From a virus (lineage: Duplodnaviria > Caudoviricetes): a stretch of 64,000 nucleotides of DNA. Shown piece after piece: positions 2,170-24,344 of the stretch. The first letter of the stretch is position 1, and the number at the start of each line of letters is the position of its first letter. The stretch is taken from IMG/VR virus record IMGVR_UViG_3300013212_000061, positions 1 through 64,000 of that record. One strand, written 5' to 3'. The notes beneath the pieces are model-generated. The model was not told the origin of the DNA and ran no database searches. It saw only the letters and a list, made by a program, of their open reading frames with translations. Both the position numbers and the translations under genes were made by a program.

Positions 2170-2235
2170 ATGAAACACATAAAATTATTTGAAGAGTTTG
2201 TTGAAGCTGAACTTAATGAATCAACAATTAATTAA
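2170..2235 (+). CDS. Leader-only 21-aa peptide MKHIKLFEEFVEAELNESTIN
   Basis: ATG 2170 directly follows the previous stop and encodes only the shared N-terminal motif. Confidence 0.5.
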   Translation: MKHIKLFEEFVEAELNESTIN

Positions 2236-2248
2236 TAAAAACAAAGAG

Positions 2249-7655: not shown

Positions 7656-9083
7656 ATGGAATTCTTAGACGCATTAAGACAAGAAGATATGGTAACTGAA
7701 AACGGGATGGCGACAAACTCAACTTCGTTGAATGCATGTGTTGACCTTTTCTTTAACATTGGAGCTATGAGAGGACAAGACAAACAACGTTTGATTGCAA
7801 CGTTCTCTAAAGCATTTAATGAGGACCCTAAGCGCGCTATGAAATTACTTTTCTGGGCCAGAGATGTCCGTGGAGGAGCTGGAGAACGTCAAGTTTTCAA
7901 AGACATTTTAGTTTATTTGGCAGAAAACCATGACTTGGTACTTAAACCAAACTTACATTTAATTTCAGAGTATGGTCGTTGGGATGATTTATTATCTTTA
8001 GCAGGAACATATCTTGAAAAAGATGCATTCACCCTAATTTCAGATGCATTAATCAACGAAAATGGTTTATGTGCTAAATGGATGCCACGTAAAGGAGCTG
8101 TAGCCGAAAAGTTACGTAAATTTACTGGAATGTCCCCAAAACAGTACAGAAAATCTCTTGTAGGTTTAACTAGTGTTGTTGAAACTAAAATGTGTGCTGG
8201 AGACTGGAATTCTATCGACTTCGGTAAATTACCATCAGTCGCTTCAGCAAGATACCAAAAAGCCTTTGGTAAAAATGCATACGAAAGTTATTCAGCGTAC
8301 ATTGCTTCTCTTGTAAAAGGTGAGGCTAAGATTAATGCAGGTGCAGTTTATCCTTACGATATTATTACATCATTAGAACGTGGAAATGCAACCGTAGCAA
8401 ACGAACAATGGAAAGCCTTGCCAAACTATTTGGAAGGTGCAAACGATATGATTTTACCAGTAGTAGACGTTTCAGGTTCTATGTCAAGTCCAGCTGGTGG
8501 AAGTAAAACTGTAACTTGTATGAATGTTGCAATCTCATTGGGTCTTTATATTTCTGAAAGAAATGAAGGTCCTTTCAAAGATGCATTTATTACATTCTCA
8601 AGTAAACCACAGTTACAAGTATTAAGTGGTTCACTGAATGATCGCTACACACAGATGTCGGACTCTGATTGGGGAATGTCAACAGATCTTGAGGCTACAT
8701 TCAAACTGATTTTAAATCAGGCCACTAAGCACAAATTGTCTCAAGACAAAATGCCAAACAAAATCTTAATCCTATCGGATATGGAGTTTAACACGGCAAC
8801 TGGAAGGGGTTATAGAAGAGAAGGAGGTACATGGAATCCAACTGCTCAGCAGTTGATTGAGAAAATGTACAACGACGCAGGTTACAAAATTCCTCAAATT
8901 GTTTACTGGAATATTCAATCCCGAAACGGAGGAGTACCAGTTGCATTTGATGCTAAAGGAACTGCATTAGTTTCAGGATTCTCTCCAGCAATTATGACAA
9001 GTTTACTTGGAGGAGATATTGAATCTCCACAACAAATAATGGATAAAACAATTTTGAGTGAGAGATACGCTCCAATTGTATAA
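7656..9083 (+). CDS. DUF2828-family TROVE/Ro60-like protein with vWA domain
   Basis: RDVRGGAGER, YGRWDDL, CAKWMPR helical region; MIDAS VVDVSGSM, ILSDMEF, YWNI, VSGFSP. Confidence 0.8.
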   Translation: MEFLDALRQEDMVTENGMATNSTSLNACVDLFFNIGAMRGQDKQRLIATFSKAFNEDPKRAMKLLFWARDVRGGAGERQVFKDILVYLAENHDLVLKPNLHLISEYGRWDDLLSLAGTYLEKDAFTLISDALINENGLCAKWMPRKGAVAEKLRKFTGMSPKQYRKSLVGLTSVVETKMCAGDWNSIDFGKLPSVASARYQKAFGKNAYESYSAYIASLVKGEAKINAGAVYPYDIITSLERGNATVANEQWKALPNYLEGANDMILPVVDVSGSMSSPAGGSKTVTCMNVAISLGLYISERNEGPFKDAFITFSSKPQLQVLSGSLNDRYTQMSDSDWGMSTDLEATFKLILNQATKHKLSQDKMPNKILILSDMEFNTATGRGYRREGGTWNPTAQQLIEKMYNDAGYKIPQIVYWNIQSRNGGVPVAFDAKGTALVSGFSPAIMTSLLGGDIESPQQIMDKTILSERYAPIV

Positions 9084-9946: not shown

Positions 9947-10533
9947 ATGTACATCTATAAGATAACTAACCTCATCAATAACAAAATCTATATTGGTCTA
10001 TCTACAAAATCAGTAGAAGAATCAACCAAATACTACGGTTCCGGTATATTAATTAAAGAAGCTATCCAAAAATATGGCAAAGAAAACTTTACTAAAGAGA
10101 TTATTGAAAACCATATAGAGAATTTCGATACTCTTAAAGTTAGAGAAATCTATTGGATAGAGTATTTTAAATCATATGCATCTTATGATAATTATAACCT
10201 AACACTAGGCGGAGATGGCTCACTAGGATTAAGTCCAACTAAATTTACTAAAAATAAAATATCTAAAACTTTAAAAGGATATATCCATTCAAAAGAAACT
10301 AAAGAAAAAATGTCTAATTCTGGAAAAGGTAGACAATTCTCAGAAGAAACCAAAGATAAATTATCTAAATCAAATAAAGGTCAAAAAGATCAGAAAAAAC
10401 AAAAGAAAATATATCAAAATCTTTAAAAGGAGTACCAAATCCTAAAAAGAACGTTCAATGCACTTTTTGCAACAAAATCGGAGCAAGTAATAACATGAAT
10501 AGGTATCATTTTAATAATTGTAAAAATAAATAA
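9947..10533 (+). mobile_element. GIY-YIG (Seg-like) homing endonuclease with NUMOD3 repeats; frameshifted before the C-terminal Cys/His finger
   Basis: YIYKITN...KIYIG, HSKETKEKMS repeats. ORF stops at 10426 but another frame continues KRSEKTKENIS...CTFCNKIG...RYHFNNCKNK* to 10533. Confidence 0.8.
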
Positions 10534-10582: not shown

Positions 10583-10879
10583 ATGAAAAACATTTTAGAA
10601 GAAGCAAACGATATCGTTAATAATCGATCAGAAGAGGCAGATAGACAGTACGGAGAATTCTCAGAAGGCATGGACCGAGCTGCAATGATTTTTAAAGGTA
10701 TGACCGGACTTGAAGTTACTGGCGAACACATGTTTAAAGCACTAGTTGCACTTAAATTCTCGAGAGAATCATACAATCACAAGCGTGATAACTTATTAGA
10801 TGCAGTTGCATATATCCAAGGATTAGACAATTACATCGAAGAAAACAAGAATGATATAGATGATGCTTTCAATGGTTAA
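10583..10879 (+). CDS. DUF6378-like all-alpha (MazG-like) nucleotide pyrophosphohydrolase-type protein
   Basis: ILEEA..IV..R...YG.F...ALKFSRE...HKRDNLLDAVAY. Confidence 0.6.
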   Translation: MKNILEEANDIVNNRSEEADRQYGEFSEGMDRAAMIFKGMTGLEVTGEHMFKALVALKFSRESYNHKRDNLLDAVAYIQGLDNYIEENKNDIDDAFNG

Positions 10880-11921
10880 TATTTACGAAGTTTTAGAATC
10901 ATTAAAGGGCAAGAAAATTGCAATTGATGATGTTGTAACTACTTATAGCTCAAAGAAGGCCTCTCATAAAAGTGCATGGGCCTTCTTATTAGCTAATCAA
11001 TTGAGGTCTCTAGGATTAGAAGTTGAAGTACTTACAAAGTCAGAAGATATTCACCAATATGATATCTGGCTAGTAGCGCTTCCAATGGAATTCCAAGGTT
11101 CTTATAATCTATTTGGTGGAGCTACTGATGAACCGGCAGAGAGAATTAAAAGATTCTTAGATTTTAGTGGAACTATATATTGTTTGAATCGAGAAATGCC
11201 AAATGTTGGCCAATTTGCCCAAAGTCGAATGAAATCATGCTCCCCTCTATGGGCATCTCTTAATACAGCAGAGCTTACCAAAAGAAGTTTAGAAACCCAA
11301 ACAATTGAATTAAAATTAGATTCAAAAACATTTGTATTGGGAGATTCTCATTCAGTTTCAGTGTACCATCCTGGTGCAAATATCAGCAGAAATGATGGTA
11401 AAACCTTATTTGGTGTTATGAAAGAAGGAATGGCCTCATATATTCCTGAAGGAACTGAGCATTTGATTACTTACTTTGGAAACATCGACGTTAGGCATCA
11501 CCTATGTCGACAAGAAAAACCTGTCGATGCTGTTAAATCTCTAGTAACAAATTACTTTGAGCACCTTAAATCTCTAGGTATTAAAAAGAATTCGATTGTA
11601 AAATTATTGCCAATCGAATTTGAAGGTCGTAGAATTCCAAAAACCGGGTACTACAAAAATACTCCATTTATAGGAACTCAACGAGAACGGACTCAATTGA
11701 TGGAGATATTTAATGAAGAGGTTGACAAACTCTCGGCTATATATAATATGAACGTAATCGAATGGCCAATTCACTGGTACTCAGCAGACCCACAATATTT
11801 TGCCGATACTTACATGGAAAAGCCAGGTTCTGTTCACCTATCTAGAGAGTTTTACCAATATGATTTCGAGACGTCCGAAAAAAATGTTGTCCTAAAGAAG
11901 ACTATCAATACTCTTTTTTGA
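10872..11921 (+). CDS. SGNH/GDSL-like hydrolase/acyltransferase-fold protein
   Basis: LGDSH, DGKTL, FGNIDVRHH, SVHLS; ATG 10872 overlaps the upstream stop. Confidence 0.5.
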   Translation: MVNIYEVLESLKGKKIAIDDVVTTYSSKKASHKSAWAFLLANQLRSLGLEVEVLTKSEDIHQYDIWLVALPMEFQGSYNLFGGATDEPAERIKRFLDFSGTIYCLNREMPNVGQFAQSRMKSCSPLWASLNTAELTKRSLETQTIELKLDSKTFVLGDSHSVSVYHPGANISRNDGKTLFGVMKEGMASYIPEGTEHLITYFGNIDVRHHLCRQEKPVDAVKSLVTNYFEHLKSLGIKKNSIVKLLPIEFEGRRIPKTGYYKNTPFIGTQRERTQLMEIFNEEVDKLSAIYNMNVIEWPIHWYSADPQYFADTYMEKPGSVHLSREFYQYDFETSEKNVVLKKTINTLF

Positions 11922-11971
11922 AACTTTTTAAATAAAACAAGTATAAAAATTATAAATTAAATTTTAAAAAA

Positions 11972-13159
11972 ATGAACAAAATTAAAGTAGGAATTATTGG
12001 AACTGGAAATTGCGCTAAATCTTTGGTTGAAGGTGTACAATATTACACAGAAAATCCAAATGATATTACCGGAATGATGAAGTCCGATATTGGAGGTTAC
12101 AAAGCAGAAAATATTGAATTTGTATGCGCCTTTGAAATTGATGAACGTAAAGTCAATCAAACATTAGGATATGCCTTAAAACAAAAACCAAACTGTGCTT
12201 ATGACATTGTTAATGTTATTACAAGCAAAGCACCGGTTTATGAATCACCTGTTATTGATGGTTATGCAGCTCTTATGGATAACTATCCAGAGCAAAATCG
12301 TTTCTTAGTTGACGAAAAACTAAGAAATTCTACAGACATGAATCGTACAGACTGGACACCAAAAAAATCACGCGAATGGAAGGACATTATTATTGCTAAA
12401 TTAAAAGACCATGGTGTTGAAGTACTTATTAATTACTTACCAGTAGGTTCTCAAAAAACAACTGAATTCTGGGCTGAAATTTGTCTTGAAACAGGAATCT
12501 CTTTAGTGAACTGTATTCCAGTTTTTATTGCATCTGATCCGGCTTGGGAGCAGCGATTTATCGATGCTGGAATTCCATTAATTGGCGATGATATGCGTTC
12601 TCAATTTGGAGCAAGTATTCTTTCTCAAATGCTACAAGAACTTGCCTTTGAAAGAGGACATCATGTAAAAGCACACATCCAAAGAAACGTTGGAGGTAAC
12701 ACAGACTTCTTGAACATGGAAGACAAATCTCGTCTAGCATCTAAAAAGATTTCTAAAGAAAACGTTATTCGTGCCCAAAACGAAATTCGTGGAATCTCAA
12801 CTGAAGATTCATTCTTACACGCAGGTCCTTCTGAATATATCGCATTCTATGGCGATAATAAAGTTGCTAACTTCCGTTTAGAACTTACAGGATTCGGTGG
12901 AGCACCAGTTCTTTTTGATGCTCAATTAAGTGTACAAGACTCTCCAAACTCTGCAGGAGTTGTAATCGACGCAGTTCGTTACTTAAGAGTTGCAAGAGAA
13001 TTAGGAGTTGTAGGAGCCTTAAGAGGTCCTTCAGCATTTACACAAAAAACCCCACCAGACCAAATGATGTTTGCTGATGCTGTTTATGAATGTACTGAAT
13101 TGGCTGCAAGACGCCTAACAGATTCTACAAGAAAACAGTTAGTTGCTAAAACAAAATAA
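11972..13159 (+). CDS. ino1: myo-inositol-1-phosphate synthase
   Basis: GIIGTGNCAKSLVEG, NYLPVGS, GDDMRSQFGA, NVGGNTDFLNM, SKKISK, GPSEY, DSPNSAGVVIDAVR. Confidence 0.92.
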   Translation: MNKIKVGIIGTGNCAKSLVEGVQYYTENPNDITGMMKSDIGGYKAENIEFVCAFEIDERKVNQTLGYALKQKPNCAYDIVNVITSKAPVYESPVIDGYAALMDNYPEQNRFLVDEKLRNSTDMNRTDWTPKKSREWKDIIIAKLKDHGVEVLINYLPVGSQKTTEFWAEICLETGISLVNCIPVFIASDPAWEQRFIDAGIPLIGDDMRSQFGASILSQMLQELAFERGHHVKAHIQRNVGGNTDFLNMEDKSRLASKKISKENVIRAQNEIRGISTEDSFLHAGPSEYIAFYGDNKVANFRLELTGFGGAPVLFDAQLSVQDSPNSAGVVIDAVRYLRVARELGVVGALRGPSAFTQKTPPDQMMFADAVYECTELAARRLTDSTRKQLVAKTK

Positions 13160-13180
13160 GTCTAACAATTTAATTAACCT

Positions 13181-13210
13181 AAAGGGAGAGAAATAACTCT
13201 CCCTTTTTTT
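13181..13210 (+). terminator. Intrinsic terminator/attenuator
   Basis: AAAGGGAGAG/CTCTCCCTTT + T run. Confidence 0.7.
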
Positions 13211-13225
13211 ATCAAAACTTTAAGC

Positions 13226-13624
13226 ATGTTAAATATTTTTAAAACAAAACAACCAAGCGATATCTACGGATATGATTTTGACGGAGTGGTATCAATTGGA
13301 ATAACTCCAAGAGCCACCACTGATTTTATTATCACTGGAAGATGCATTGATGAAAAGGACGAAGTTCGTGCAATCCTTAAAGAGAGAGGAATTAAATGCA
13401 AGGTCTATTTTAATCCAATGACTCTTGAAGAACGTGGAAACCACACAGTTGCTGCAAGAAGACATTCTGGACATCACAAAGCCCATACAATTAATCGTTT
13501 AAAAGGTGAAGGAGTTATTGTTTCTCGTTTTTTCGAAGATGACCCAATACAATATCAAATCCTTCAGGAAAATTGTCCTGACGTCGAATTGGTTAACATT
13601 GTGTCAAAATTAGTACAAAAATAA
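13226..13624 (+). CDS. Capless HAD-superfamily phosphatase
   Basis: DFDGV (motif I), ITGR (II), HK (III), FFEDD (IV). Confidence 0.8.
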   Translation: MLNIFKTKQPSDIYGYDFDGVVSIGITPRATTDFIITGRCIDEKDEVRAILKERGIKCKVYFNPMTLEERGNHTVAARRHSGHHKAHTINRLKGEGVIVSRFFEDDPIQYQILQENCPDVELVNIVSKLVQK

Positions 13625-13632
13625 AATACAAA

Positions 13633-14820
13633 ATGACTTCAAATAAACAACTGCTTGAGATGGATTCTCAGGCACTGTTGGATTTAATACCAGCAGAAAA
13701 AAAGCAGCTTATTCGAGATTTTATTCATGAAATGAATCGAAGAGAATATGAGGTTCGTTTTGCAAAAACATGTACCTTTGATACCTTTAGACATCGAGAA
13801 GGTACTGGAGAGGACATCTTTGGCCATGGATTTATAGTAGAGGGACGTTCAGTTCCATACTTCCATCCAAATCGTTCGTTTCATGATGAGATTATTTGGT
13901 TAAATGAAAATGTGTTCTACAATCCAGAATGTACGTTTGAAGACCGTCTAATTAATGCAGCGATTGTAAAGTTCTATGGACCGTCAAACACAATTAGTCT
14001 ATTAACGCATGACACTGGATTTCCATTTGTCAAATATGACCGACTTGTTAATGATGAGAAATATGTTCTACAGTGCATGGTTAATATGGAAAATGCCAGA
14101 AGACGTGGAGAAAAGATTTACGGCACTACAGAATTACGAACAAGTCTTCAAACTGAATCGAGAAACCATGCAAGGGTTCTTAAAACTCCTTATGATGTAT
14201 TAATTGGTGCCGAACCGGATCCAACTAGACAGAGCCGAACAAGTGATATGTTTTTTTGGTTTACTCTATTGGGCCCACGTTTTGCAGAATTTTATGCTAA
14301 AAAGCCGACAATGGAAGAGTCGTTTGATTTCTTAACATCTCATCGAGGAATTGGAAACTATTATGGGTACCATTTTAGCACTAACCTTGCCCGAATGCCA
14401 GAAATCGGTACTCCTGACTTATTAAGACCAAATAGTCTATCCGGAAATCTTAACGAAGACGATGACTTTGTTGCACCTGGAGTTGGAGCGATGACCACAA
14501 TCAACTGGTTCTATGAAGACTTAGGTTTTTCAATTTCATCAGACGTTGGAGCTAAAGTAATCAGACAAATCCGGGACACTCAGCACGAATTCTTTGATTT
14601 TACTGGAGAGAACCTTGACTATTTAGAAACAATCACAGAGACCGGAAGGTTTACAACCTTTGGTACTGAAATTAGTTGTTGTCAATTTGGTGTATTTTTA
14701 AGATTGAGAGATAGTAAAAAGATGGCCTTAAACCGTGCAAATGCTCCAATTTCAAAAGAACAAATTGGCGAATCTTGTGAGATTGAAGCTCCATCATTTA
14801 AAAGTTCATGTTTATTTTAA
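13633..14820 (+). CDS. aGPT-Pplase1/5-hmdU-associated helical (HhH-glycosylase-like) DNA base transferase homolog
   Basis: YFHPNRSFHDEIIWL, GIGNYYGYHF, EDDDFVAPGVGA, EISCCQFGVFLR resemble the family pattern F.NV.R..D / G.G.F.AY / END.F...GPGA / E..LCEF.KY.R. Confidence 0.55.
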   Translation: MTSNKQLLEMDSQALLDLIPAEKKQLIRDFIHEMNRREYEVRFAKTCTFDTFRHREGTGEDIFGHGFIVEGRSVPYFHPNRSFHDEIIWLNENVFYNPECTFEDRLINAAIVKFYGPSNTISLLTHDTGFPFVKYDRLVNDEKYVLQCMVNMENARRRGEKIYGTTELRTSLQTESRNHARVLKTPYDVLIGAEPDPTRQSRTSDMFFWFTLLGPRFAEFYAKKPTMEESFDFLTSHRGIGNYYGYHFSTNLARMPEIGTPDLLRPNSLSGNLNEDDDFVAPGVGAMTTINWFYEDLGFSISSDVGAKVIRQIRDTQHEFFDFTGENLDYLETITETGRFTTFGTEISCCQFGVFLRLRDSKKMALNRANAPISKEQIGESCEIEAPSFKSSCLF

Positions 14821-14862
14821 ACAAGTTCAAAATTACCTATAAAACTATTATATAAAAAACTT

Positions 14863-15330
14863 ATGGCAAATATAGACAATCAATGTAAAGACCTGGAAGT
14901 TAATGACTTCTATTCAGATTCGACCACTCACTTGGCGGATATCATGGAAAACCAAAAGAAAATGCAAGAGCAAACTTACGGTTTTAATTTCGAAAACATG
15001 ACACTTAGAGAGATTATGAACTTTTGGCATGTCAACACTCATGCTGTTATTGATGAAATTCATGAAATGACCGATGCCCTTGGAGGTATTAAAGATGGCA
15101 GTGGAAATGCAGTTTGGAAATACTGGAAAAAAGACTTTTCAAAATATGAAACCATGAAAATCAGCGACCTATCAGAAGGTGATAAAAAGGAATTGTATAT
15201 GGAATGGGTTGACATAATGCACTTCTTTATAAATTATGCAGCATCTATTGGATTAGACGCGAAAACAGCCTACAATTATTACTTTGCGAAAGCAGAAGCA
15301 AATGTTCAACGTCAGAAAAATAACTATTAA
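14863..15330 (+). CDS. gp56-like all-alpha dCTPase/dUTPase
   Basis: DEIHEMTDALGG, AVWKYWK, EWVDIMHFF, K...NVQRQKNNY. Confidence 0.8.
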   Translation: MANIDNQCKDLEVNDFYSDSTTHLADIMENQKKMQEQTYGFNFENMTLREIMNFWHVNTHAVIDEIHEMTDALGGIKDGSGNAVWKYWKKDFSKYETMKISDLSEGDKKELYMEWVDIMHFFINYAASIGLDAKTAYNYYFAKAEANVQRQKNNY

Positions 15331-16727
15331 TGATACTCGACATCGAACAGCGTGAAAAAGATGTTATCATTTCATACTACAATGACAAGGGAGAAGTAGC
15401 ATTCAAACAATACCCAGTGGATAAATTCCAAAATTGGTATGTTTGTGATGACAAAGACAAAGCGGCCAGTCCAGACTATAAAAACTGGGATGGCCGCCCT
15501 GTTAAACTAGGATATGGAAAACAATTCAATAAGTTTTCTATTCTTTATTTTTTAGATAATCTTTCAGAGAAGGACAAAAAAGACCTAACAGCATATAATA
15601 TGCCAAAAACCTATTTTGTCGATATTGAAACTGAAATTGTTGACGGCTTTCCAAAAGCCGAAGAGGCCAAAAGTAGAATTCTTTCATTCTCAATAATTAC
15701 TCCAGACCGTAAAGCAATCGTGCTTGGACTGGAAGATATGGCTTCAGATAAAATCCAAAAGATTCAAGATGATACTAATGAGTATTTCAAAGACTTTGAC
15801 CAGGACTGGGAATTTAAGTACCATAAGTTCAAGTCTGAGTACGACATGGTTTACACATTCTTAATGAAATTCTTACCAAAGTTTCCAATGATGACTGGGT
15901 GGAATTTTATCAACTATGACTGGCAATATATTGTTAATCGTTGTAAAAGACTTCAAATTGATATTAAAGAAGTTGGTATGACAAATTCAATCGATCATAC
16001 TGATGGTCGACCTCTTCATATCGGAATTCTTGACTACATGCAATTGTATGACAAATATGACCGAACGGTAAAAGTTAAAGAATCCAACTCATTAGATTAT
16101 GTTTCTAGTCAAGTTTTGAATGTTAACAAAATCAAGTTCACTGGTTCACTACAGGACTTATACCGTGATAACTTTGTTAAGTACATATATTATAACGTTG
16201 TCGATTCAGTGCTTGTGTATTACATTGACCAGAAGTTGAAGTCGATGGAGGTACTATTAACACTGGCAAATATTACAAATATGCCCTTATATAAAGCAAG
16301 TTCTCCAGTGGCAGTTACTGAATCTATTATGGCCAGAAAATTGGCTGAGCAAGGAATGCGAATTGGAAGTGAAGAGAAATCTGATAGTCAAAAAGATGGC
16401 CAATACGCTGGAGCATTCGTAAAAGAACCAATCTTAGGATTCTATGAAGGTGTAAGTGCATTCGATTTTGCTTCACTGTATCCTTCGATCATGAGACAAT
16501 TCAATATATCTCCAGATGCATACATCGAAAAGATTTATAAGAGTGAAATTGATGAACGTAGAAAGAACAAAGAGGTTATAGTTTGTGATAATGGTGTAGT
16601 TTACAAAACTGAAGATTCAATCTTAAGAAAGATATTAAGTGACCTATATGCACAGCGTAAAGATTATAAAAAAACTTCTTATGAATACTTCACAAAAGCT
16701 GACCGGTTGAAAAAACTGCTCCAATAA
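15330..16727 (+). CDS. gp43A: Family B DNA polymerase, N-terminal subunit (3'-5' exonuclease + motif A)
   Basis: DIETE, GWNFINYDW, YNVVD, FDFASLYPSI; ends after the first finger helix QRKDYKK. Confidence 0.88.
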   Translation: MILDIEQREKDVIISYYNDKGEVAFKQYPVDKFQNWYVCDDKDKAASPDYKNWDGRPVKLGYGKQFNKFSILYFLDNLSEKDKKDLTAYNMPKTYFVDIETEIVDGFPKAEEAKSRILSFSIITPDRKAIVLGLEDMASDKIQKIQDDTNEYFKDFDQDWEFKYHKFKSEYDMVYTFLMKFLPKFPMMTGWNFINYDWQYIVNRCKRLQIDIKEVGMTNSIDHTDGRPLHIGILDYMQLYDKYDRTVKVKESNSLDYVSSQVLNVNKIKFTGSLQDLYRDNFVKYIYYNVVDSVLVYYIDQKLKSMEVLLTLANITNMPLYKASSPVAVTESIMARKLAEQGMRIGSEEKSDSQKDGQYAGAFVKEPILGFYEGVSAFDFASLYPSIMRQFNISPDAYIEKIYKSEIDERRKNKEVIVCDNGVVYKTEDSILRKILSDLYAQRKDYKKTSYEYFTKADRLKKLLQ

Positions 16728-16771
16728 CATGTATATATATAAACCGCGAAACTTAAAAAAATAATTACTAA

Positions 16772-17749
16772 ATGAGCAATATCTTTGAAAAAAGGGTAAA
16801 CATTTTACCCTACGAATACCCATCCCTATTAGCATACAAAGACGCAATCCGCCATTCATACTGGATTCACACAGAATTTAACTTTACAACAGATATTGAT
16901 GACTTTATGACTAAAGTAACTGAATCAGAGCGTGAAGTAATTAAAAGATCGATGCTTGCAATCGCACAAATCGAGGTTAACGTTAAAACATTTTGGGCAG
17001 ATCTTTATAAAAGAATGCCAATCACTGAAATTGGAGATGTTGGAATGACATTTGCCGAAAGTGAAGTGCGACACAAAGATGCTTACGCACAATTATTAAG
17101 AGTCCTAGGATTAGAAGACGAATTCCAACATGTAGTAGAAATTCCAGCAATTAAAGATAGAATTGCATACTTAAGTAAGTATTTGGATGGTACAAGAAGT
17201 AAGGACAATAAAATGTATACGAAATCCGTACTGTTATTTTCATTGTTTATAGAACATGTTAGTCTATTTAGCCAATTCTTTATTATGATGTCCTTTAACA
17301 AAGAGAAAAACCTTTTTAAAGGTATTTCAAATGTAGTTGAAGCGACAAGTAAAGAGGAGGAAATCCACGGTAACTTCGGATCTGAATTGATTAACATTAT
17401 TAAGAGAGAGAATCCAGAATGGTTTGATGAGGAATTCGAACAACTTATAGATTCTGCCTGTAAAAAAGCGTACCTAGCAGAGGTTAAAATTCTTGATTGG
17501 ATTTTTGAAAAGGGTGAACTTGATTTCCTATCAAAGGAGACTATTAAACAATTTATCCAAAACCGTTTTAATAATTCCCTACAAAGAATTGGAATGAAAC
17601 CTGTATTTGATGTTGATTTTACAGAAATTGAAAAGTCCCTATGGTTTGACGTTGAGATTCTTTCAACTAAAGAGGGAGACTTTTTTTACAAGAAGCAAAT
17701 CGATTATTTTAAGAAAGGTAAGTCAATAACTGAAGACGATTTATTTTAA
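16772..17749 (+). CDS. nrdB: Class I ribonucleotide reductase beta subunit
   Basis: ESEVRHKDAY, IEHVSLFSQF, EEEIHG, DFF. Confidence 0.9.
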   Translation: MSNIFEKRVNILPYEYPSLLAYKDAIRHSYWIHTEFNFTTDIDDFMTKVTESEREVIKRSMLAIAQIEVNVKTFWADLYKRMPITEIGDVGMTFAESEVRHKDAYAQLLRVLGLEDEFQHVVEIPAIKDRIAYLSKYLDGTRSKDNKMYTKSVLLFSLFIEHVSLFSQFFIMMSFNKEKNLFKGISNVVEATSKEEEIHGNFGSELINIIKRENPEWFDEEFEQLIDSACKKAYLAEVKILDWIFEKGELDFLSKETIKQFIQNRFNNSLQRIGMKPVFDVDFTEIEKSLWFDVEILSTKEGDFFYKKQIDYFKKGKSITEDDLF

Positions 17750-17770
17750 AATTTAAAAACAAAGAACAAA

Positions 17771-19396
17771 ATGGAATATCAAAAGAATTACTGGCTTAAT
17801 GAAGACAGTAGAACATTTTTATCTAGAGGTTATATCACAGAATCTCCAGAGCAGCGAATTAAAGATGTAGCAAATACCGCAGAAAGAGACTTAAAAATTG
17901 AAGGATTTGCAAAAAAGTTTGAGGACTATATGACTAGAGGATTCTATAGTTTATCAACTCCAGTTTGGATTAATTATGGAAAAGACAAGGGACTTCCGGT
18001 TAGTTGTTATGGAAGTAACGTAGATGATACTTTAGATAGTATCTTAAATGGAAGTAGAGAAGTTGGAATGATGTCAAAATACGGAGGAGGAACTTCGGCA
18101 TTTTTAGGAAACATCAGGGCAAGAGGTACTAAAATTTCAACAGGTGGAACTGCAGATGGTCCAGTACATTATGCCAGATTATACGATACAACAGTTGATG
18201 TATGCAAACAATCAGAGGCCAGAAGAGGCGCATGTGCAGTTTGGTTACCAGTAGAACACAATGACATTCTAGAATTTTTAGATATCGGAACCGATGGTAA
18301 TCCAATTCAAAACCTACAATATGGTGTTACTGTCACCGACGCTTGGATTGCTGAGATGAAAGCAGGAGACGCAGATAAACGTAAAATCTGGGCTAAAATA
18401 ATCCAAAGACGTAATGAGTTTGGTTTTCCTTACATTATGTTTAAGGACAATACCAATAACAATTCGCCATATAAAGAATTGGGACTTGAAATTACCGCAA
18501 GTAACCTTTGTAGTGAAATTCAATTACCAACAGACAGTTTTAATTCATTTGTTTGTTGTTTAGGTTCTATCAATTTATTACATTGGGAAGAAATTAAAGA
18601 GACTGATGCAATCGAAGTTTATGTTCAGTTCTTAAACGCAGTTATGGACGAATTCGTCAACAAGTCTTATAATATGCCTGGAATGAAAAGAGCATGGAGA
18701 TTTGCAAATGACCACAGATCGTTAGGTCTTGGAGTATTGGGTTATCATTCACTATTTCAGGCTAAATTAATTAGCTTTGATTCACTTCAAGCAAAACAAT
18801 TAAACCATGAAATCTTTTCAACAATAAAAGAACGTAGCGAGGCGGCTTCAAGATGGTTGCACGATGAGAAAGGTTACCGTTCAATCCGTCCAGGTTATGC
18901 AAACACTACCCTAGTTGCGATTGCTCCTACAAAAAGTAGTTCATTTATCCTAGGACAGGTAAGTATGGGAATTGAACCAATCAAATCTAATTATTTTATT
19001 AAAGATTTGGCCAAGTCAAAAACAATTTATAAGAACCCTTTCTTAATTCAAGAGCTGGACAAATATGGTTTAAATACACCAGATGTTTGGGAAGGAATCT
19101 TAAAACGTGACGGGAGTGTACAACATTTAGACTTTCCAACTAAAGAGGTTTTTAAATCTTTTGTTGAAATCAGTCCAAAGGAAATAGTACTACAAGCGGC
19201 TCAAAGACAACAATTTATTGACCAATCACAGTCACTAAATTTAATGATACATCCATCAGTTTCGGCTAAGGACATTAATACACTATACCTTTACGCACAT
19301 GAGGAAGGGGTTAAAACCCTATACTATCAATTTAGTCAAAGTTCAGCCCAGTCTTTTGCAAGAGACATTCTTGAATGCACAAGCTGCGAGGCGTAA
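17771..19396 (+). CDS. nrdA: Class I ribonucleotide reductase alpha subunit (no ATP-cone)
   Basis: PVSC, GGGT, RRGA, SNLCSEI, APTKSSS, KTLYY, C-terminal CTSCEA. Confidence 0.92.
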   Translation: MEYQKNYWLNEDSRTFLSRGYITESPEQRIKDVANTAERDLKIEGFAKKFEDYMTRGFYSLSTPVWINYGKDKGLPVSCYGSNVDDTLDSILNGSREVGMMSKYGGGTSAFLGNIRARGTKISTGGTADGPVHYARLYDTTVDVCKQSEARRGACAVWLPVEHNDILEFLDIGTDGNPIQNLQYGVTVTDAWIAEMKAGDADKRKIWAKIIQRRNEFGFPYIMFKDNTNNNSPYKELGLEITASNLCSEIQLPTDSFNSFVCCLGSINLLHWEEIKETDAIEVYVQFLNAVMDEFVNKSYNMPGMKRAWRFANDHRSLGLGVLGYHSLFQAKLISFDSLQAKQLNHEIFSTIKERSEAASRWLHDEKGYRSIRPGYANTTLVAIAPTKSSSFILGQVSMGIEPIKSNYFIKDLAKSKTIYKNPFLIQELDKYGLNTPDVWEGILKRDGSVQHLDFPTKEVFKSFVEISPKEIVLQAAQRQQFIDQSQSLNLMIHPSVSAKDINTLYLYAHEEGVKTLYYQFSQSSAQSFARDILECTSCEA

Positions 19397-19455
19397 GAAA
19401 CCGGCAATCTGAAACATGATTGCATTTTAGGACCGGGACTAGTTCACGGAGGTGT

Positions 19456-19487
19456 AAAGCAGGGAATTCGCTACTCCCTGCTTTTTT
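19456..19487 (+). terminator. Intrinsic terminator
   Basis: AAAGCAGGGA/TCCCTGCTTT + T run. Confidence 0.75.
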
Positions 19488-19534
19488 ATGTTTAAAATCT
19501 AGGGATATATAAATAAAATAAAAATCTTTTGCAA

Positions 19535-20617
19535 ATGATTCCAATCAAGCTTTTCGAAGAATTCTTATACGAAGAAAATCTTAAAAACAAATACGCTAAG
19601 AAAGTGGCATGGATTATGAAGTCTCATGATATTCATGCAACTTCAGGCGATGTTAATGGCCGCGAAAAGAAATACAATATCGCCGCTAAAGGTAACCTAT
19701 TCTTAAACTATGCAACCAAAGAGGACTTTAAAGATGATGCAGTTGTAGTACCTGGAAATGTTCCAATACTTAATTATGGAGGAGCAGTAGACCCGGAGGC
19801 TATTGGATTCTTAAAGAATAAAGGAATCAACAATGATAATCTATACAACAAAAGAGAATTACTTCCACTATCAGGAGACAAGATAAAATTTGCTAAAGCA
19901 GCCGCAAAATTTGATTGGCTTCCAAAAACAGTTTTTACAAAAGAGGATGCCATTAAAGGAGACGTTGGTTTCCCGGTAATTGCAAAAATAAAAGATGGAC
20001 ACAGTGGAGTTGGAATTCAAAGGTTTGACACCGCCAAAGAATTAGAAGAGAGCAAAGATACATTCGATATCTTTTGTCAATTTATAGATTTTGCAAGAGA
20101 ATATAGAGTAATGTTTTGTAGAGACAAGATATTTGTTATCAACGAAAGAGTACCTAGAATTGAGGACGACCGTTCAATCAAAACTAAAACTGCCGATGAA
20201 AAAATCAGTTTTACTTATGTTTATCAAGACAGAAAGAAAGTTGACCCTGAATTTATTGAAAATGTGTTATCAATTTGCAAAGACGTTAAAACATTCTTAG
20301 ACCTAGACTTATGGGCCCTAGATATTGTAGTAGATAAAAAGGGTAAAATGTGGATTATGGAAACATCATCTGCTACCGGACTTGGAAGTGTTAAAATGTG
20401 CGAAGTTTATAAGGCAATGTATGAAGATTTTTACGGAGAAGCAATAGATGACGAATTCTTAGAGGACATTTACCTAAAATACGTAGTTCCTGGACATCAA
20501 AATTATTACCCAAAATTTAAAAAAGAAATCGATTCATCACAATGGCCGATGGATTACAAAATATTGACTGATCCGAAAGCAAAAGATGGATATAGATATT
20601 TTTTTAATTTAGATTAA
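19535..20617 (+). CDS. RimK-like ATP-grasp ligase with capsid-targeting-like N-terminus
   Basis: DKIKF, FPVIAK..DGHSGVG, QFID..REYRV, ALDIV, WIMETSSATG; starts MIPIKLFEEFLYEE behind late promoter 19504. Confidence 0.75.
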   Translation: MIPIKLFEEFLYEENLKNKYAKKVAWIMKSHDIHATSGDVNGREKKYNIAAKGNLFLNYATKEDFKDDAVVVPGNVPILNYGGAVDPEAIGFLKNKGINNDNLYNKRELLPLSGDKIKFAKAAAKFDWLPKTVFTKEDAIKGDVGFPVIAKIKDGHSGVGIQRFDTAKELEESKDTFDIFCQFIDFAREYRVMFCRDKIFVINERVPRIEDDRSIKTKTADEKISFTYVYQDRKKVDPEFIENVLSICKDVKTFLDLDLWALDIVVDKKGKMWIMETSSATGLGSVKMCEVYKAMYEDFYGEAIDDEFLEDIYLKYVVPGHQNYYPKFKKEIDSSQWPMDYKILTDPKAKDGYRYFFNLD

Positions 20618-20618
20618 T

Positions 20619-21677
20619 ATGAAAACAGGAATATTTAAAACATCGCTAAAGGAAAACGAAAAACGAATTCCAATCCACCCAGCCCATATTGAAAGGCTAT
20701 CCGGAGAAATAATTAAAGAACTCTTATTTGAAGAGGGATATGGAGATGACTATGGCTATTCAGACTCTCAACTCGAACAAATGGGTTGCAAGTTTGCCAG
20801 TCGTGCGGATCTTTTTAAAGAGTGCAACATAATTATATTACCAAAACCACTCGCTGAAGACCTAAAACAAATACAGGATGGTGCAACTCTATGCGGTTGG
20901 ACCCATGCAGTTCAACAGAGGGACATTACAGACATTGCTATCGAAAAAGGGTTAACACTTATTGCTTGGGAAGAGATGAACAGTGTTTCCAAAAACCAAA
21001 AGTTGCATACATTCTATCGGAACAATGAACTTGCTGGATACGCTGGCGTTATACATTACCTACAATTAGCAGGTCTTGATGGACACTATGGAGACCGTAA
21101 GAAGGTTGTTATTTTTGGATTTGGTTCTGTAAGTAAAGGAGCAATCTATGCCCTACAGGGTAGAGGTTTTAATAACATTACCGTTTATACTCAAAGACCT
21201 ACACACTTAGTTGCCGACAAAAATCCTGACGTCTGGTACAAAAACTTTAATGACGATGACGTTTGGGAAGACATGTATTCTGCCAATATTATATTTAATG
21301 GAGTCTTACAGGATGTAAATAATCCACTAATGTTTATTAAAGATTTGAATCAATTGGATCAACTACGCAGAAACTGCGCAATTATCGATATCAGTTGTGA
21401 CAGGGGAATGGGATTCTTTTTTGCAGAACCTACATCATTTGAAAATCCAATTATAAAATTAAGAAGAGGGATACAGTACTATTCAGTCGATCATACTCCA
21501 ACATACTTATGGAATGCAGCATCTAGAGAAATCTCTGCCGCGCTTGTACCTTACTTAGATACTATAATAGAACCTCAAAAATGGAAAGACAATCCAGTTA
21601 TTAATGCTTCTATCGATATTGCATGTGGAACTATTATTAATCAAAACATAAACAAATTTCAAAAAAGGAATATATAA
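20619..21677 (+). CDS. ceo: N5-(carboxyethyl)ornithine synthase-like opine dehydrogenase (AlaDH/PNT fold)
   Basis: KENEKRIPIHP, FEEGYG, GWTHAVQ, IAWEEM, NNELAGY, GFGSVSKGA, IDISCD, VDHTP. Confidence 0.75.
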   Translation: MKTGIFKTSLKENEKRIPIHPAHIERLSGEIIKELLFEEGYGDDYGYSDSQLEQMGCKFASRADLFKECNIIILPKPLAEDLKQIQDGATLCGWTHAVQQRDITDIAIEKGLTLIAWEEMNSVSKNQKLHTFYRNNELAGYAGVIHYLQLAGLDGHYGDRKKVVIFGFGSVSKGAIYALQGRGFNNITVYTQRPTHLVADKNPDVWYKNFNDDDVWEDMYSANIIFNGVLQDVNNPLMFIKDLNQLDQLRRNCAIIDISCDRGMGFFFAEPTSFENPIIKLRRGIQYYSVDHTPTYLWNAASREISAALVPYLDTIIEPQKWKDNPVINASIDIACGTIINQNINKFQKRNI

Positions 21678-21700
21678 ATAAAAAAAAATAAAAAACGATA

Positions 21701-22144
21701 ATAAAACACATTAAACTATACGAAGAATTTGTAAACGAAGACTTAGGAATAATTGACATTGCATTAGGAGCCGCAGTTGGAGTTGCAGGTCTATTGGCAT
21801 TAGTTCAAGGTTTACCGGTAGTAGGTAGGGTTCTTGGAGATGCTGCTGAAGCATTAGCAAATAGGACTGAAGCAAAAGCTAAGCAAGCAGCAAAAGGTAA
21901 AAGAAAAGAATTAATTGGAGAAATCATTAAGAAATTTGAAGGAGATACAAAACTTAAACAAATGTATCAAGACTTGCCTGAGTATGGCGCAATGGGAAGT
22001 AGTCAAAAAACACTTAAAGCCAATAGTGAAAGAAGAAACCAATTAACAACAATCGGAAATTATATTAAATCTAAACTAACACAAGAGGAAATGGAATACT
22101 TTACCGATATTTCTTCTATGCTAAGAACTGGAGACGTAAGATAA
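21701..22144 (+). CDS. Putative head-packaged membrane-active protein with ATA or lost start codon
   Basis: In-frame extension of ORF 21794: (I)KHIKLYEEFVNEDLGIIDIALGAAVGVAGLLAL...; in-frame stop at 21689 and no ATG. Confidence 0.55.
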   Translation: MKHIKLYEEFVNEDLGIIDIALGAAVGVAGLLALVQGLPVVGRVLGDAAEALANRTEAKAKQAAKGKRKELIGEIIKKFEGDTKLKQMYQDLPEYGAMGSSQKTLKANSERRNQLTTIGNYIKSKLTQEEMEYFTDISSMLRTGDVR

Positions 22145-22161
22145 AAATATCATTTAATGTA

Positions 22162-22254
22162 ATGGACCCAGCGCCAAATTGCCTACCCTTCTTTATTGGA
22201 ATAATTGGTATATTTTTTATAGTCATGATACTTAATGAATTTAAAAAAAATTAA
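22162..22254 (+). CDS. 30-aa single-TM peptide
   Basis: MDPAPNCLPFFIGIIGIFFIVMILNEFKKN. Confidence 0.4.
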   Translation: MDPAPNCLPFFIGIIGIFFIVMILNEFKKN

Positions 22255-22305
22255 ATAATTAACCTCTCCTCAGGATAGAATCGGAGGACCGACTCATACG
22301 AGTTT

Positions 22306-22332
22306 AACCTGTCAGTAATGGCAGGTTTTTTT
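22306..22332 (+). terminator. Intrinsic terminator
   Basis: AACCTGTCA/TGGCAGGTT + T run. Confidence 0.7.
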
Positions 22333-22388
22333 ATGTGAAACAAAACCCCCTTTTTGTCTATAATACTTAAATAATTTAAACACTAAAT

Positions 22389-23144
22389 ATGAAAATTAAA
22401 ATTGACAAAGTAGACCAAAACAATTTCATCGGTTTTGTGAATAGACTTAAGGTTATAGATACCTTTATCTACTTTAAAATCAAGGATGAAGTGGTACAGG
22501 CATCCGCCTATCTTCCACAAAGAGATGCTGTTAAACATCACAGAATTCCAGTGTCGCAAGTATTCCAATTAGAAGACGGTGCTATTAACACATCAAAAGA
22601 ATTAAAAATTGCCTTCTTTGATGCTGGTCGTTTAACTGACGCATTTAAACAATTTGAATTTGGAAACATCCAAGCTGAAATTGAATTCGTAGAAAATGAC
22701 GAGGATTTCGTAGCAACTGAGTTCCGTATTTTCAACAATGAATTGGAAATTAAACTTGCATGTTCTGAGCCTTCATTAGGTTATAAAGACCTTACAGATG
22801 CTCAAATTGCAGGAATCTTTAATATTGACGCAGCAAACTATGTATTTGACATGGATTATACTGCAACTTCAAAAGTTCGTTCTCTTTTTGGATTGGACAA
22901 AGAAGAAACTTTCACTATCTCAACTAATGCAGAAGGTGTCCGAATGAAAGGTAAAACTTACAACTACCTTGTAACCGATTCATTCCAAGGAACCAATCCT
23001 GGAAATGTAACTCTTTTCAAAAAATATTTAAACCTATTAGACAAAGAAGATTATTCAGCAAATGTTATGGATAACCGAGTAGTATTACGCTCAAAAGATT
23101 CAGAAACATTACTAACTATCGCTACTTGCCAAACAGCTGAATAA
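22389..23144 (+). CDS. Probable sliding clamp (gp45/PCNA-like)
   Basis: About 250 aa, acidic alpha/beta pattern, directly before the polymerase C-subunit. Confidence 0.5.
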   Translation: MKIKIDKVDQNNFIGFVNRLKVIDTFIYFKIKDEVVQASAYLPQRDAVKHHRIPVSQVFQLEDGAINTSKELKIAFFDAGRLTDAFKQFEFGNIQAEIEFVENDEDFVATEFRIFNNELEIKLACSEPSLGYKDLTDAQIAGIFNIDAANYVFDMDYTATSKVRSLFGLDKEETFTISTNAEGVRMKGKTYNYLVTDSFQGTNPGNVTLFKKYLNLLDKEDYSANVMDNRVVLRSKDSETLLTIATCQTAE

Positions 23145-23147
23145 TTT

Positions 23148-24344
23148 ATGACAATCGAAGAACTAATACTAAAACCAGAGAGTGATTTATCACAAGATGA
23201 AATTAAAACATTGGTTGAGCATTATTCTATGTTGTCAGCAAAGTTTGGAGCCTATGAACAAGCAGTAAAAGTAATGCTTAACTCGATCTATGGCGCCTTC
23301 GGTAACAAATGGTTTCACTTTTTTAATATAGACATCGCAGAATCTATTACCCTACAGGGACAGTCTGCGATTCTATATTCTGAGAAGATACTAAATAAGT
23401 ATTTTCAAGAGTTTTGGACTAAAGACAAGGCAGTTCATGAGTTTTTTAACATTCAAGTTAAAAATAAACTTGTGCGACCTTCAGTAGTCTATATTGATAC
23501 CGATTCTTGTTATGTACAGTTTGAAGAGATGTATGAATCTATTGAATGGCTTGGAGACAAGATATCGATTGACCAATTCATTATGAAATTGTATAACTTT
23601 AGACTTAAAGATTATATTTTTAAGTGTATGGAGAAATATGCAGAAGCCACTAATACTGAAAACTTCCTCCAGTTTGAATTGGAAACGATTGCCTACTCTG
23701 GAATTTGGTTAGCTAAGAAAAAATACCTGCAAAATATTGCTTGGGAAGATAAAATTGGAATTGAAGAACGTTACCCTTCACTTAAGAAGGTTAAAACTAT
23801 TGGTTTTGATACAATTCAAAGTTCAACACCAGCTCTTGCAAGAAAGCAGTTGACCGATATTCTTAAATTGATTCTTTCAGAAAAACCTACAGCGTCCCTA
23901 TTAAAAAGACTAGTAGATTATTTGAAACAATGTAAAAAAGAATTCCAATTAGCAAGTGTTGATGAGATATGTTTTAATAAAAGAACTAACAATATCGAAA
24001 AATATATTGTAGATGATACGGTAGAATTTCAATATGGTTTAAAATGTCCACCAAACGTTAAAGCTGCAGGATTTTATAATTTCTTAATGAATCAAAATCC
24101 AAAGTTCAAGAACAAGTATAAGATGATTGGTAATGGTGAAAAGCTAAAACTATATCATTGTAAACATGGGACATGTGAAATATTTGCATACCAACCAGGA
24201 GCTCATCCTTATGAAATTGCCCCTCAAGTTGACTATGAAACACAATTCGAAAAGAGTGTTATAGATCCATTGAACCGGGTTCTTACCGCAGTTGGTTTAC
24301 ATACACTAAATAGAAACTTAATTTATTCAACTTCATTATTTTAA
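23148..24344 (+). CDS. gp43B: Family B DNA polymerase, C-terminal subunit (motifs B, C, thumb)
   Basis: QAVKVMLNSIYGAFGN, ITLQGQ, YIDTDS, KKKY, C-terminal SLF. Confidence 0.9.
   Translation: MTIEELILKPESDLSQDEIKTLVEHYSMLSAKFGAYEQAVKVMLNSIYGAFGNKWFHFFNIDIAESITLQGQSAILYSEKILNKYFQEFWTKDKAVHEFFNIQVKNKLVRPSVVYIDTDSCYVQFEEMYESIEWLGDKISIDQFIMKLYNFRLKDYIFKCMEKYAEATNTENFLQFELETIAYSGIWLAKKKYLQNIAWEDKIGIEERYPSLKKVKTIGFDTIQSSTPALARKQLTDILKLILSEKPTASLLKRLVDYLKQCKKEFQLASVDEICFNKRTNNIEKYIVDDTVEFQYGLKCPPNVKAAGFYNFLMNQNPKFKNKYKMIGNGEKLKLYHCKHGTCEIFAYQPGAHPYEIAPQVDYETQFEKSVIDPLNRVLTAVGLHTLNRNLIYSTSLF

Follow-up and report, generated by a model that had tools for sequence, protein, structure and literature searches.

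A candidate inositol-based DNA hypermodification cluster in a distant T4-like phage

The viral DNA analysed here, hereafter the window, covers the opening 64 kb of the 80-kb viral contig IMGVR_UViG_3300013212_000061, which is 28% complete as estimated by CheckV. The window is AT-rich (G+C ~33%) and carries T4-type genes for a portal, a prohead protease, a gp23 capsid protein, a clamp loader, a terminase and a sheath; its source is a distant T4-like phage. At 10583..15330 lie six co-oriented, tightly packed open reading frames (ORFs), all of which were present when the ORFs were checked, and which an earlier reading of the bare sequence (the original prediction) had taken for a pathway that makes inositol and attaches it to a DNA base. 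Comparative and structural evidence supports that idea, the central observation being the recurrence beside DNA modification genes of two adjacent genes that encode a myo-inositol-3(1)-phosphate synthase (MIPS) and a small HAD-type phosphatase (HADl). On balance we favour the view that the region forms the core of a post-replicative DNA hypermodification pathway in which the appended group derives from phage-made inositol. The features of the region are as follows.

10583..10879, + strand: DUF6378 small all-alpha protein (Pfam PF19905, 1.6e-9, above the cut-off)
10860..11921, + strand: SGNH two-domain protein (GDSH, GNID and H326 motifs; Lipase_GDSL sub-threshold)
11972..13159, + strand: MIPS (Pfam Inos-1-P_synth, 2.3e-22)
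13181..13206, + strand: terminator-like hairpin and T-run between MIPS and HADl (consensus scan)
13226..13624, + strand: HADl, minimal cap-less HAD phosphatase (invariant HAD motifs)
13633..14820, + strand: HEL, protein with a predicted HhH-DNA-glycosylase fold (Pfam HMUDK_hel, above the cut-off)
14863..15330, + strand: predicted gp56-type dCTPase/dUTPase, all-alpha NTP pyrophosphatase (phrog_173, 2.1e-12; tblastn to gp56)
15330..16727, + strand: N-terminal exonuclease/palm part of a split family-B DNA polymerase, PolB (Pfam DNA_pol_B_exo1 and DNA_pol_B)

The N-terminal part of PolB is a neighbour that stands outside the pathway itself; it is joined to the gp56-like gene by a TAATG at 15328-15332, in agreement with the translational coupling noticed originally. 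The class B promoters proposed at the same time were not borne out: sigma-70-like sites number 38, compared with 34.1 +/- 5.9 in shuffled sequences, and TATAAATA does not occur within the region. A megablast search with the region found no match in 50,697 phage records.

The MIPS–HADl pair and the proteins HEL and SGNH

MIPS scores 79.7 bits against its Pfam profile, whose cut-off is 27. Its closest solved relative is Ino1 of M. tuberculosis (1gr0; 8.7e-77, 262 bits), followed by the five-membered cyclitol synthase 6k96 (3.2e-41, 145 bits). HADl, a protein of 132 residues which lacks a cap domain, has no match among the HAD profiles of Pfam or NCBIfam; its identity as a HAD protein is instead upheld by its motifs (DxDGV, ITGR, K85 and EDD), with D17, D19, T37, K85 and E104-D105-D106 invariant in alignments of 15 and of 23 sequences. 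It also matches the phosphatase part of PHROG 415, annotated 'polynucleotide kinase', at 6.7e-5. HAD phosphatases of the cap-less form usually act on large substrates.

Searches of the 50,697 phage records by tblastn found MIPS and HADl each in the identical 19 records (16 from Stenotrophomonas Menderavirus, two from Cr30 and one from RP13). A scan of IMG/VR with the HADl profile yielded 21 distant loci, every one of which encodes MIPS, and among the 163 metagenomic loci that were gathered (93 distinct MIPS DNAs), HADl is present in all 92 unique MIPS loci that reach far enough. The two proteins thus form a strict pair and a single module, with HADl an obligate partner of MIPS. The genes always travel together, though the window has a strong terminator-like hairpin between them (stem of 10 bp with 5 GC pairs, then TTTTTATC), and in the metagenomic locus L169 a Methyltransf_11 gene separates them. 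Against 1.84 billion sequences, the HADl profile retrieved 352 family representatives at E <= 1e-3, of which 212 reach E <= 1e-10 and 70 reach E <= 1e-30. Among these are fusions of HADl to C-terminal S-adenosylmethionine (SAM) methyltransferase-like domains (P0140, which matches 3dh0 at 5e-4, and P0166, P0241 and P0181, recognised by motif only), as well as several with homing-endonuclease-like N-terminal parts (P0193, P0198, P0247 and P0253).

HEL had been described as a helical, aGPT-Pplase1-like protein. A model supports the aGPT-Pplase/HhH-type fold, but the Pfam family is a different one: HEL belongs to HMUDK_hel (PF18723; 32.1 bits, cut-off 25, E 9.8e-8, profile positions 53-273 of 281), and is neither an ADDT nor a Pplase1 protein. 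The same family is matched above its cut-off in four related records. An alignment-based AF2 model of HEL (pLDDT 90.7) was compared exhaustively with 48,161 chains, of which the most similar is PaMx11 gp46, a 5-PmdU glycinyltransferase (8z2m_A; Z 9.8, rmsd 4.2, 228 aligned residues), although the tool itself warns that Z values below ~13 may reflect chance arrangement in helical proteins. The second and third ranks are held by QNG1/DUF2419 queuine-salvage enzymes (Z 9.2 and 8.2), and ranks 4-23 are HhH DNA glycosylases without exception. Despite the weak Z values the list is uniform, and we regard it as evidence of middling strength for the modelled fold. In a library of viral models, Foldseek matched HEL to the 5-hydroxymethyldeoxyuridine (5-hmdU) DNA kinase of SP10 (5.4e-4), to several HMUDK_hel proteins and to Pplase1; a HEL profile run against the sequences of the Protein Data Bank (PDB) gave no meaningful match.

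A Glu-x3-Cys-Gln motif (E346, C350, Q351) is invariant in 45 HEL sequences, and E-x3-C is likewise invariant in the ADDT-type proteins which adjoin MIPS in other phages. Glu243 and Cys247 form the catalytic dyad of PaMx11 gp46, which acts on a flipped-out thymine according to PMC11472151, and the Cys and Glu of M6 gp51 and ViI gp247 are both described as essential in PMC8989533. The spacing of E346 and C350 in HEL equals that of the gp46 dyad and of the ADDT-type proteins, a likeness of sequence spacing only; by sequence, the ADDT-type proteins themselves did not retrieve 8z2m. HEL stands alone, with no P-loop kinase domain joined to it and no match to a kinase family, and elsewhere its fusion partners are SGNH or FkbM domains. 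On the evidence available HEL would act like an amino-acid:DNA transferase (AADT), though it falls outside Pfam ADDT, and we propose that it is a base-flipping group transferase. Many HEL homologs (P0014-P0049, 480-567 aa) extend further, through a low-complexity linker, to a small conserved C-terminal domain (...NWKESW..LQ.LVKKG...) which, judged by eye, resembles a winged-helix DNA-binding domain.

The SGNH protein probably starts at the in-frame ATG at 10872, which overlaps the upstream stop. Its SGNH-like character agrees with the original prediction: the Ser, Gly, Asn and His blocks are conserved across a family alignment of 31 sequences, without variation at GDSH (161-164), GNID (207-210) and H326 and with almost none at N178-D179-G180. 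Pfam Lipase_GDSL reaches 17.6 bits (E 0.0043), under its cut-off of 23.6; a protein atlas search returned the protein's own viral clusters plus a GDSL lead at 0.90, and a single-sequence AlphaFold model was too poor to judge the fold (pLDDT 38.6). From its motifs, the C-terminal part of ~190 residues is predicted to be a hydrolase/acyltransferase-type SGNH domain. The N-terminal ~150 residues bear a weak likeness to the N-domain of a homolog of T4 beta-glucosyltransferase (hhalign, residues 20-131; probability 44.7, E 2.3e-4), which would fit a domain that recognises DNA containing 5-hydroxymethylcytosine (5-hmC).

Evidence for a link between SGNH and HEL comes from fusions. SGNH matches phrog_13881 and the N-terminal half of phrog_17781; SGNH-HEL fusions occur in Aeromonas phages 31 and 44RR2.8t, and the opposite order, HEL-SGNH, is found in P0122 (32% identity, 1e-43). 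Whilst SGNH had been cast as an optional late acylase, it is instead a fixed partner of HEL, being present in 34 of 35 HEL loci and in none of the five ADDT loci. In the ADDT-type loci L178 and L187 a P-loop kinase directly follows HADl, which, by the Pfam reading, is not the case in L175. As SGNH in HEL loci and the kinase in ADDT-type loci are complementary, SGNH may fill the activating role of a DNA kinase.

Gene orders around the pair and the predicted precursor base

The synteny of MIPS with an HhH-type transferase gene, on which the original prediction leaned, holds well beyond close relatives and through many gene orders. Within the clade of the window the order DUF6378-SGNH-MIPS-HADl-(slot)-HEL-dCTPase-PolB is kept, with HEL divided between two or more clades (70-98% and 24-29% identity) compared with a steady 83-99% for MIPS. 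In L078 and L113, whose lineage encodes its polymerase in one piece and also has a GroES/GroEL pair, the order is TS-like-DUF6378-dUTPase-SGNH-MIPS-HADl-HEL-PolB (TS, thymidylate synthase), and L174 and L185 show TS-like ... MIPS-HADl-HEL. Other contexts contain ADDT: L175 has FkbM-ADDT-MIPS-HADl, and Cr30 has an ADDT protein (1.3e-52) and a beta-glucosyl-HMC-glucosyltransferase-like protein directly upstream of MIPS. L178 (3883-8661) has Tet_JBP-ADDT-MIPS-HADl-Ploopntkinase3 and L187 (3449-8950) Tet_JBP-FkbM-(ADDT-like)-MIPS-HADl-Ploopntkinase3; these are compact sets for oxidation, phosphorylation and transfer, in which MIPS and HADl are the sole genes left without a role. RP13 encodes an HMUDK_hel protein (3e-47), an HMUD2 kinase and a dUMP-type TS homolog, and in L170 and L183 GT4 glycosyltransferases lie between MIPS and HADl, accompanied by C5 DNA methylases. 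Wide reach, meaning 3 kb or more upstream and 4 kb or more downstream, is given by 43 distinct loci, and 40 of these have an HhH-type gene, which is HEL in 35 and ADDT in five. The loci come mostly from one clade and are not phylogenetically independent; this argument draws its weight from how many different gene orders there are, not from the counts. Homologs of the anti-CBASS protein Acb1 were also seen a few genes from MIPS clusters, in RP13 (L116 8631-9221) and in L170 (487-975).

The pair also occurs inside 7-deazaguanine clusters with genes for FolE, QueC, a DpdA-type transglycosylase and QueD, as seen in Menderavirus (L001, phage Marzo, 5098-10621), L169 and L181. In P0231 (393 aa), HADl is fused to a PP-loop domain of QueC-like type that has a match to Cap9 (9nto_B) at 2.7e-7. 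The position of MIPS-HADl in these clusters, together with this fusion, suggests an inositol derivative of a 7-deazaguanine base in the QueC lineages.

The last gene of the cluster has tblastn matches to the gp56 genes of JSE (35%, 8e-16) and Aeromonas phage 31 (30.5%, 9e-14), in line with the gp56-like character first proposed, and is accordingly predicted to encode a dCTPase/dUTPase. The hydroxymethylase and kinase that the pathway seemed to call for had been reported missing locally, and indeed no thymidylate-synthase-family gene and no HMUD2 were found in the 80-kb contig. Searches of related records recovered a candidate for the former and none for the latter: near-identical larger contigs (G001-G003, in which HEL is 95-98% identical) encode two TS-family proteins, one a canonical ThyA and the other a divergent second homolog. 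In G001-G003, L078 and L113 this second homolog keeps the catalytic Cys and has Asp at the positions of L143 and N177 of E. coli ThyA; Asp169 is kept, and in alignments the Asp at the N177 position is as in T4 gp42. Section 28 of PMC13326640 gives residue criteria for telling dCMP hydroxymethylase, thymidylate synthase and 5-hydroxy-dCMP synthase apart. The signature of the second homolog is that of a predicted dCMP hydroxymethylase, not of a thymidylate synthase or a 5-hydroxy-dCMP synthase. The hydroxymethylated pyrimidine of the original prediction is therefore retained and refined: given the dCMP-type Asp of the TS homolog and the gp56-type dCTPase in the cluster, the precursor base in this lineage is probably 5-hmC. 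RP13, by contrast, would use 5-hydroxymethyluracil, given the Asn at the equivalent position of its TS homolog and its HMUD2 kinase. In L042:2180-3103 (record G001), a 307-residue DUF6445 protein (5.7e-12) with an HxD...H pattern, noted by eye, adjoins the dCMP-hydroxymethylase-like gene.

Between HADl and HEL lies a variable slot. In the window it spans 8 bases (13624-13633) and holds no gene; in most relatives it holds an FkbM-family methyltransferase of 225-243 residues (for example L010:7292-7993), which diverges along with HEL (45% and 26% identity, against an unchanging 95% for MIPS), and which is fused to HEL in P0121. In L055 and L007, whose HEL is 98% identical to that of the window, the slot encodes a 345-residue homolog of T4 beta-glucosyltransferase (L055:9655-10692); this homolog was not found in G000-G004, which include the window's own record.

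A proposed pathway, its precedents and its alternatives

Building on the gene content, folds, motifs, fusions and co-occurrence described above, the following scheme may be envisaged. The gp56-type dCTPase and the dCMP-hydroxymethylase-type TS homolog, the latter encoded outside the 80-kb fragment in the near-identical larger contigs, would replace dC by 5-hydroxymethyl-dC in the phage DNA. MIPS would cyclise glucose-6-phosphate to inositol-3-phosphate, and HADl would dephosphorylate the cyclitol, whether still free or already attached to DNA. HEL would flip the modified pyrimidine out of the helix, and SGNH, in complex with HEL, may convert the hydroxymethyl group into a leaving group (an O-acyl ester), replacing the 5-hmdU DNA kinase; alternatively, SGNH may edit the product. 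The Cys of the Glu-x3-Cys dyad would, as in AADT, add to C6 to give an exocyclic methylene at C5, which a hydroxyl of inositol or inositol phosphate would capture to form an ether-linked inosityl-methyl-cytosine. In relatives, the enzyme of the variable slot is predicted to add further decoration. Such a modification would presumably serve escape from restriction. The activating step is a guess, because neither an HMUD2 kinase nor ADDT was found in related records.

Several observations tell against this scheme. MIPS scores 286.8 bits against the NCBIfam equivalog TIGR03450, below the cut-off of 638. For HEL, in addition to the low Z values, a Foldseek search of the model against the PDB returned nothing at E <= 0.001, Pfam ADDT (aGPT-Pplase2, PF18724) did not match even at E <= 10, and hhalign of HEL with the ADDT-type proteins was not significant (E 0.23), the alignment consisting of 13 columns that pair the motifs. 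The window's own contig, 28% complete, has no hydroxymethylase gene; HMUD2 was not detected in G000-G004, which are fragments and for which control genomes gave no match either, nor was ADDT in five related records, whose fragmentary state leaves its absence unproven. Three of the 43 wide-reach loci (two Menderavirus-sized and L181) have MIPS-HADl without an HhH-type gene, in a 7-deazaguanine (QueC) context, and a single clade accounts for most of the 163 loci, which lack phylogenetic independence. Finally, Aeromonas phages carry SGNH-HEL without MIPS, from which it follows that SGNH-HEL is independent of phage-made inositol.

Post-replicative hypermodification of hydroxymethyl-pyrimidines by HhH-fold transferases is already known. 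In thymidine hypermodification (phages M6, ViI, PaMx11, SP10 and PhiW-14), a 5-hmdU DNA kinase and an AADT/aGPT-Pplase2 act post-replicatively on a 5-hydroxymethyl-pyrimidine, chemistry which the proposed pathway would share; HEL belongs to the family of the kinase's helical domain, PaMx11 gp46 is the best solved match to its modelled fold, and it has a Glu-x3-Cys of the same spacing. A hydroxyl nucleophile also has a precedent in the O-linkage of serine by ViI gp247, as described in PMC8989533. The lineage of the window differs in that no P-loop kinase or ADDT was found and SGNH is the fixed partner, in that its predicted base derives from cytosine, and in the proposed nucleophile, a cyclitol of the phage's own making where the known pathways use an amino acid or polyamine. 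T-even glucosylation of 5-hmC (gp42, gp56 and the alpha- and beta-glucosyltransferases) resembles the system in its gp56-like dCTPase, in the gp42-like TS homolog of relatives, and in the beta-glucosyltransferase homolog that occupies the slot of a relative with 98%-identical HEL. However, the window itself has no such homolog, and HEL, SGNH, MIPS and HADl are all missing from T4.

The closest parallel to the SGNH-HEL arrangement is ORF233c of Aeromonas phages 31 and 44RR2.8t, an uncharacterised protein of 795 residues in phrog_17781, which is a direct fusion of the two and is similar to HEL (40.6% identity, Foldseek E 3.7e-25). According to PMC2993671, genes 42 and 56 are present in phages 44RR and 31 but glucosyltransferases are not, which makes ORF233c a candidate for their missing hmC-modifying enzyme. 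In contrast with the window, these genomes encode no MIPS or HADl, and the gene lies in the early region near motA.

Formation of arabinosyl-5-hydroxycytosine in RB69 and DLP3 offers a different comparison, as there too both the base-precursor enzyme and the biosynthesis of the appended group are phage-encoded. PMC13326640 describes a phage TS homolog and a small route to the appended group which includes a small HAD-type phosphatase; the donor is an NDP-sugar, which GT-B glycosyltransferases transfer to 5-hydroxycytosine. The TS homolog of our lineage, by contrast, keeps Asp169 and so lacks the 5-hydroxycytosine signature, and no nucleotidyl-activation step is evident. A further parallel lies in mycothiol biosynthesis, which begins with Ino1, followed by the GT4 enzyme MshA and then a phosphatase. 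MIPS is most similar to actinobacterial Ino1, and L170 and L183 have a GT4 gene between MIPS and HADl; the cluster in the window, however, has no GT4 gene and belongs to a DNA-modification context, not to thiol metabolism.

The Aeromonas phages also lend weight to a different explanation, in which SGNH-HEL adds a group other than inositol (for example an O-acyl group from a host donor) to hydroxymethyl-pyrimidine DNA, and MIPS-HADl serves some other step, whether in this modification or in a separate one, such as a glycosyl-inositol, a co-substrate or a cofactor. That these phages combine the fusion with gene 42 and 56 homologs, and do so without MIPS or HADl, is what it would predict; the catalytic residues of SGNH are intact, and the GT4 proteins encoded between MIPS and HADl in L170 and L183 belong to what we take to be the family of MshA. 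We nevertheless think this explanation rather unlikely, as MIPS-HADl directly abuts the HhH-type gene in most contexts (ADDT-MIPS-HADl or MIPS-HADl-HEL), and as in the otherwise complete Tet_JBP/kinase/ADDT set of L178 only MIPS and HADl have no assigned role. The rank of QNG1/DUF2419 structures as the second and third fold matches, together with the location of the cluster among genes of nucleotide metabolism (dCTPase, ribonucleotide reductase), could instead mean that HEL acts like the queuosine-nucleotide hydrolase QNG1 on a nucleotide-level substrate, the target being a free nucleotide, tRNA or other RNA. This is improbable given that the characterised relatives 5-HMUDK and AADT act on DNA polymers, as stated in PMC8989533, that some HEL homologs have the winged-helix-like C-terminal domain (by eye), and that a homolog of a DNA beta-glucosyltransferase is encoded in the adjacent slot.

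Slightly less probable again is an auxiliary metabolic module, in which MIPS-HADl would supply the infected cell with inositol as an osmolyte or lipid head group and owe its position to shared early/replication expression. Free inositol is classically made by MIPS and a phosphatase, and MIPS is conserved much more strongly (83-99% identity) than the genes around it, which fall to 24-70% across the same loci, as a housekeeping-type enzyme would be; set against this, the pair lies within a few genes of a single HhH-type or QueC-type modification gene in many gene orders, HADl is fused to QueC-like (P0231) and SAM methyltransferase-like domains, and its cap-less form points towards a large substrate. 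It is very unlikely that the appendage is carbocyclic or unusual in some other way, with the MIPS homolog making another cyclitol phosphate as Ari2, a synthase of five-membered cyclitols, does: 6k96 is indeed the second-best solved relative and the TIGR03450 cut-off is missed, but the protein is far nearer to genuine Ino1 by bit score. The attachment of phage-made inositol to a modified DNA base thus remains the reading that we prefer.

More tentatively, the pair may mark a widespread class of cyclitol (inositol) DNA hypermodification, in which MIPS and a cap-less HAD protein would supply the cyclitol, HhH-fold Glu/Cys transferases (HEL or ADDT) would graft it onto 5-hydroxymethyl-pyrimidines, and a QueC-like ligase would do so onto 7-deazaguanine elsewhere; SGNH would provide kinase-independent activation as an acyl ester in HEL lineages, with FkbM proteins and glycosyltransferases diversifying the coat. 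The statement in the original prediction that no inositol-modified nucleobase has been described agrees with our search of full-text literature (main texts), which found no paper on inositol-based DNA modification; inositol appeared there only in enzyme names, and phage genome papers merely annotate the synthase. A cyclitol appendage with a two-gene supply, and SGNH in the place of the kinase, are likewise not described in the full-text literature found. To our knowledge, the groups attached to phage DNA comprise sugars, amino acids and polyamines or compounds derived from them, and a phage-made cyclitol, if confirmed, would be a new chemical class. The ether-linked inosityl group would be isobaric with a hexose and acid-stable, and for this reason easily mistaken for glucosylation in mass spectra. 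MIPS-HADl provides a simple two-gene marker for modification clusters of several architectures, including one through which a function can be proposed for ORF233c of Aeromonas phages 31 and 44RR. Replacement of a DNA kinase by SGNH, if true, would be a new route of nucleobase activation, relevant to restriction and CRISPR evasion and to enzymatic DNA labelling.

Other features of the cluster and the window

The first gene of the cluster is a DUF6378 gene, as had been proposed, and this conserved first gene is retained in related loci; in the L078/L113 lineage it is flanked by the TS-like gene and a dUTPase. Kinship of DUF6378 with dGTP_diPhyd_N was considered and none was detected by hhalign. 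Just upstream of the cluster, at 7656-9083, lies a gene for a DUF2828/DUF7788 protein (phrog_850, 'RNA-binding protein', 8e-155), which is kept in that position in close relatives.

The family-B DNA polymerase is divided into two genes (15330-16727 and 23148-24344), the halves being ~6.4 kb apart within 15330-24344 and separated by both ribonucleotide reductase subunits and small ORFs. Also between them are genes for an R2K-type ATP-grasp protein (19529-20617) and an AlaDH/PNT-like dehydrogenase (20619-21677), a pair which is present or missing depending on the relative. Homing-endonuclease-like genes occur in the window at 9947-10426 (GIY-YIG/NUMOD3) and 55981-56583 (NUMOD3). A protein of 643 residues encoded at 2189-4120 has a C-terminal cytidylyltransferase-like domain (PF01467, 1.8e-7), which may relate to cyclitol activation or to NAD metabolism, and a long protein of 831 residues, encoded at 30560-33055, contains collagen triple-helix repeats (1.2e-50) and has a weak match to the gp15-like tail-sheath stabiliser (PF16724, 2e-5, 24.4 bits, cut-off 25).

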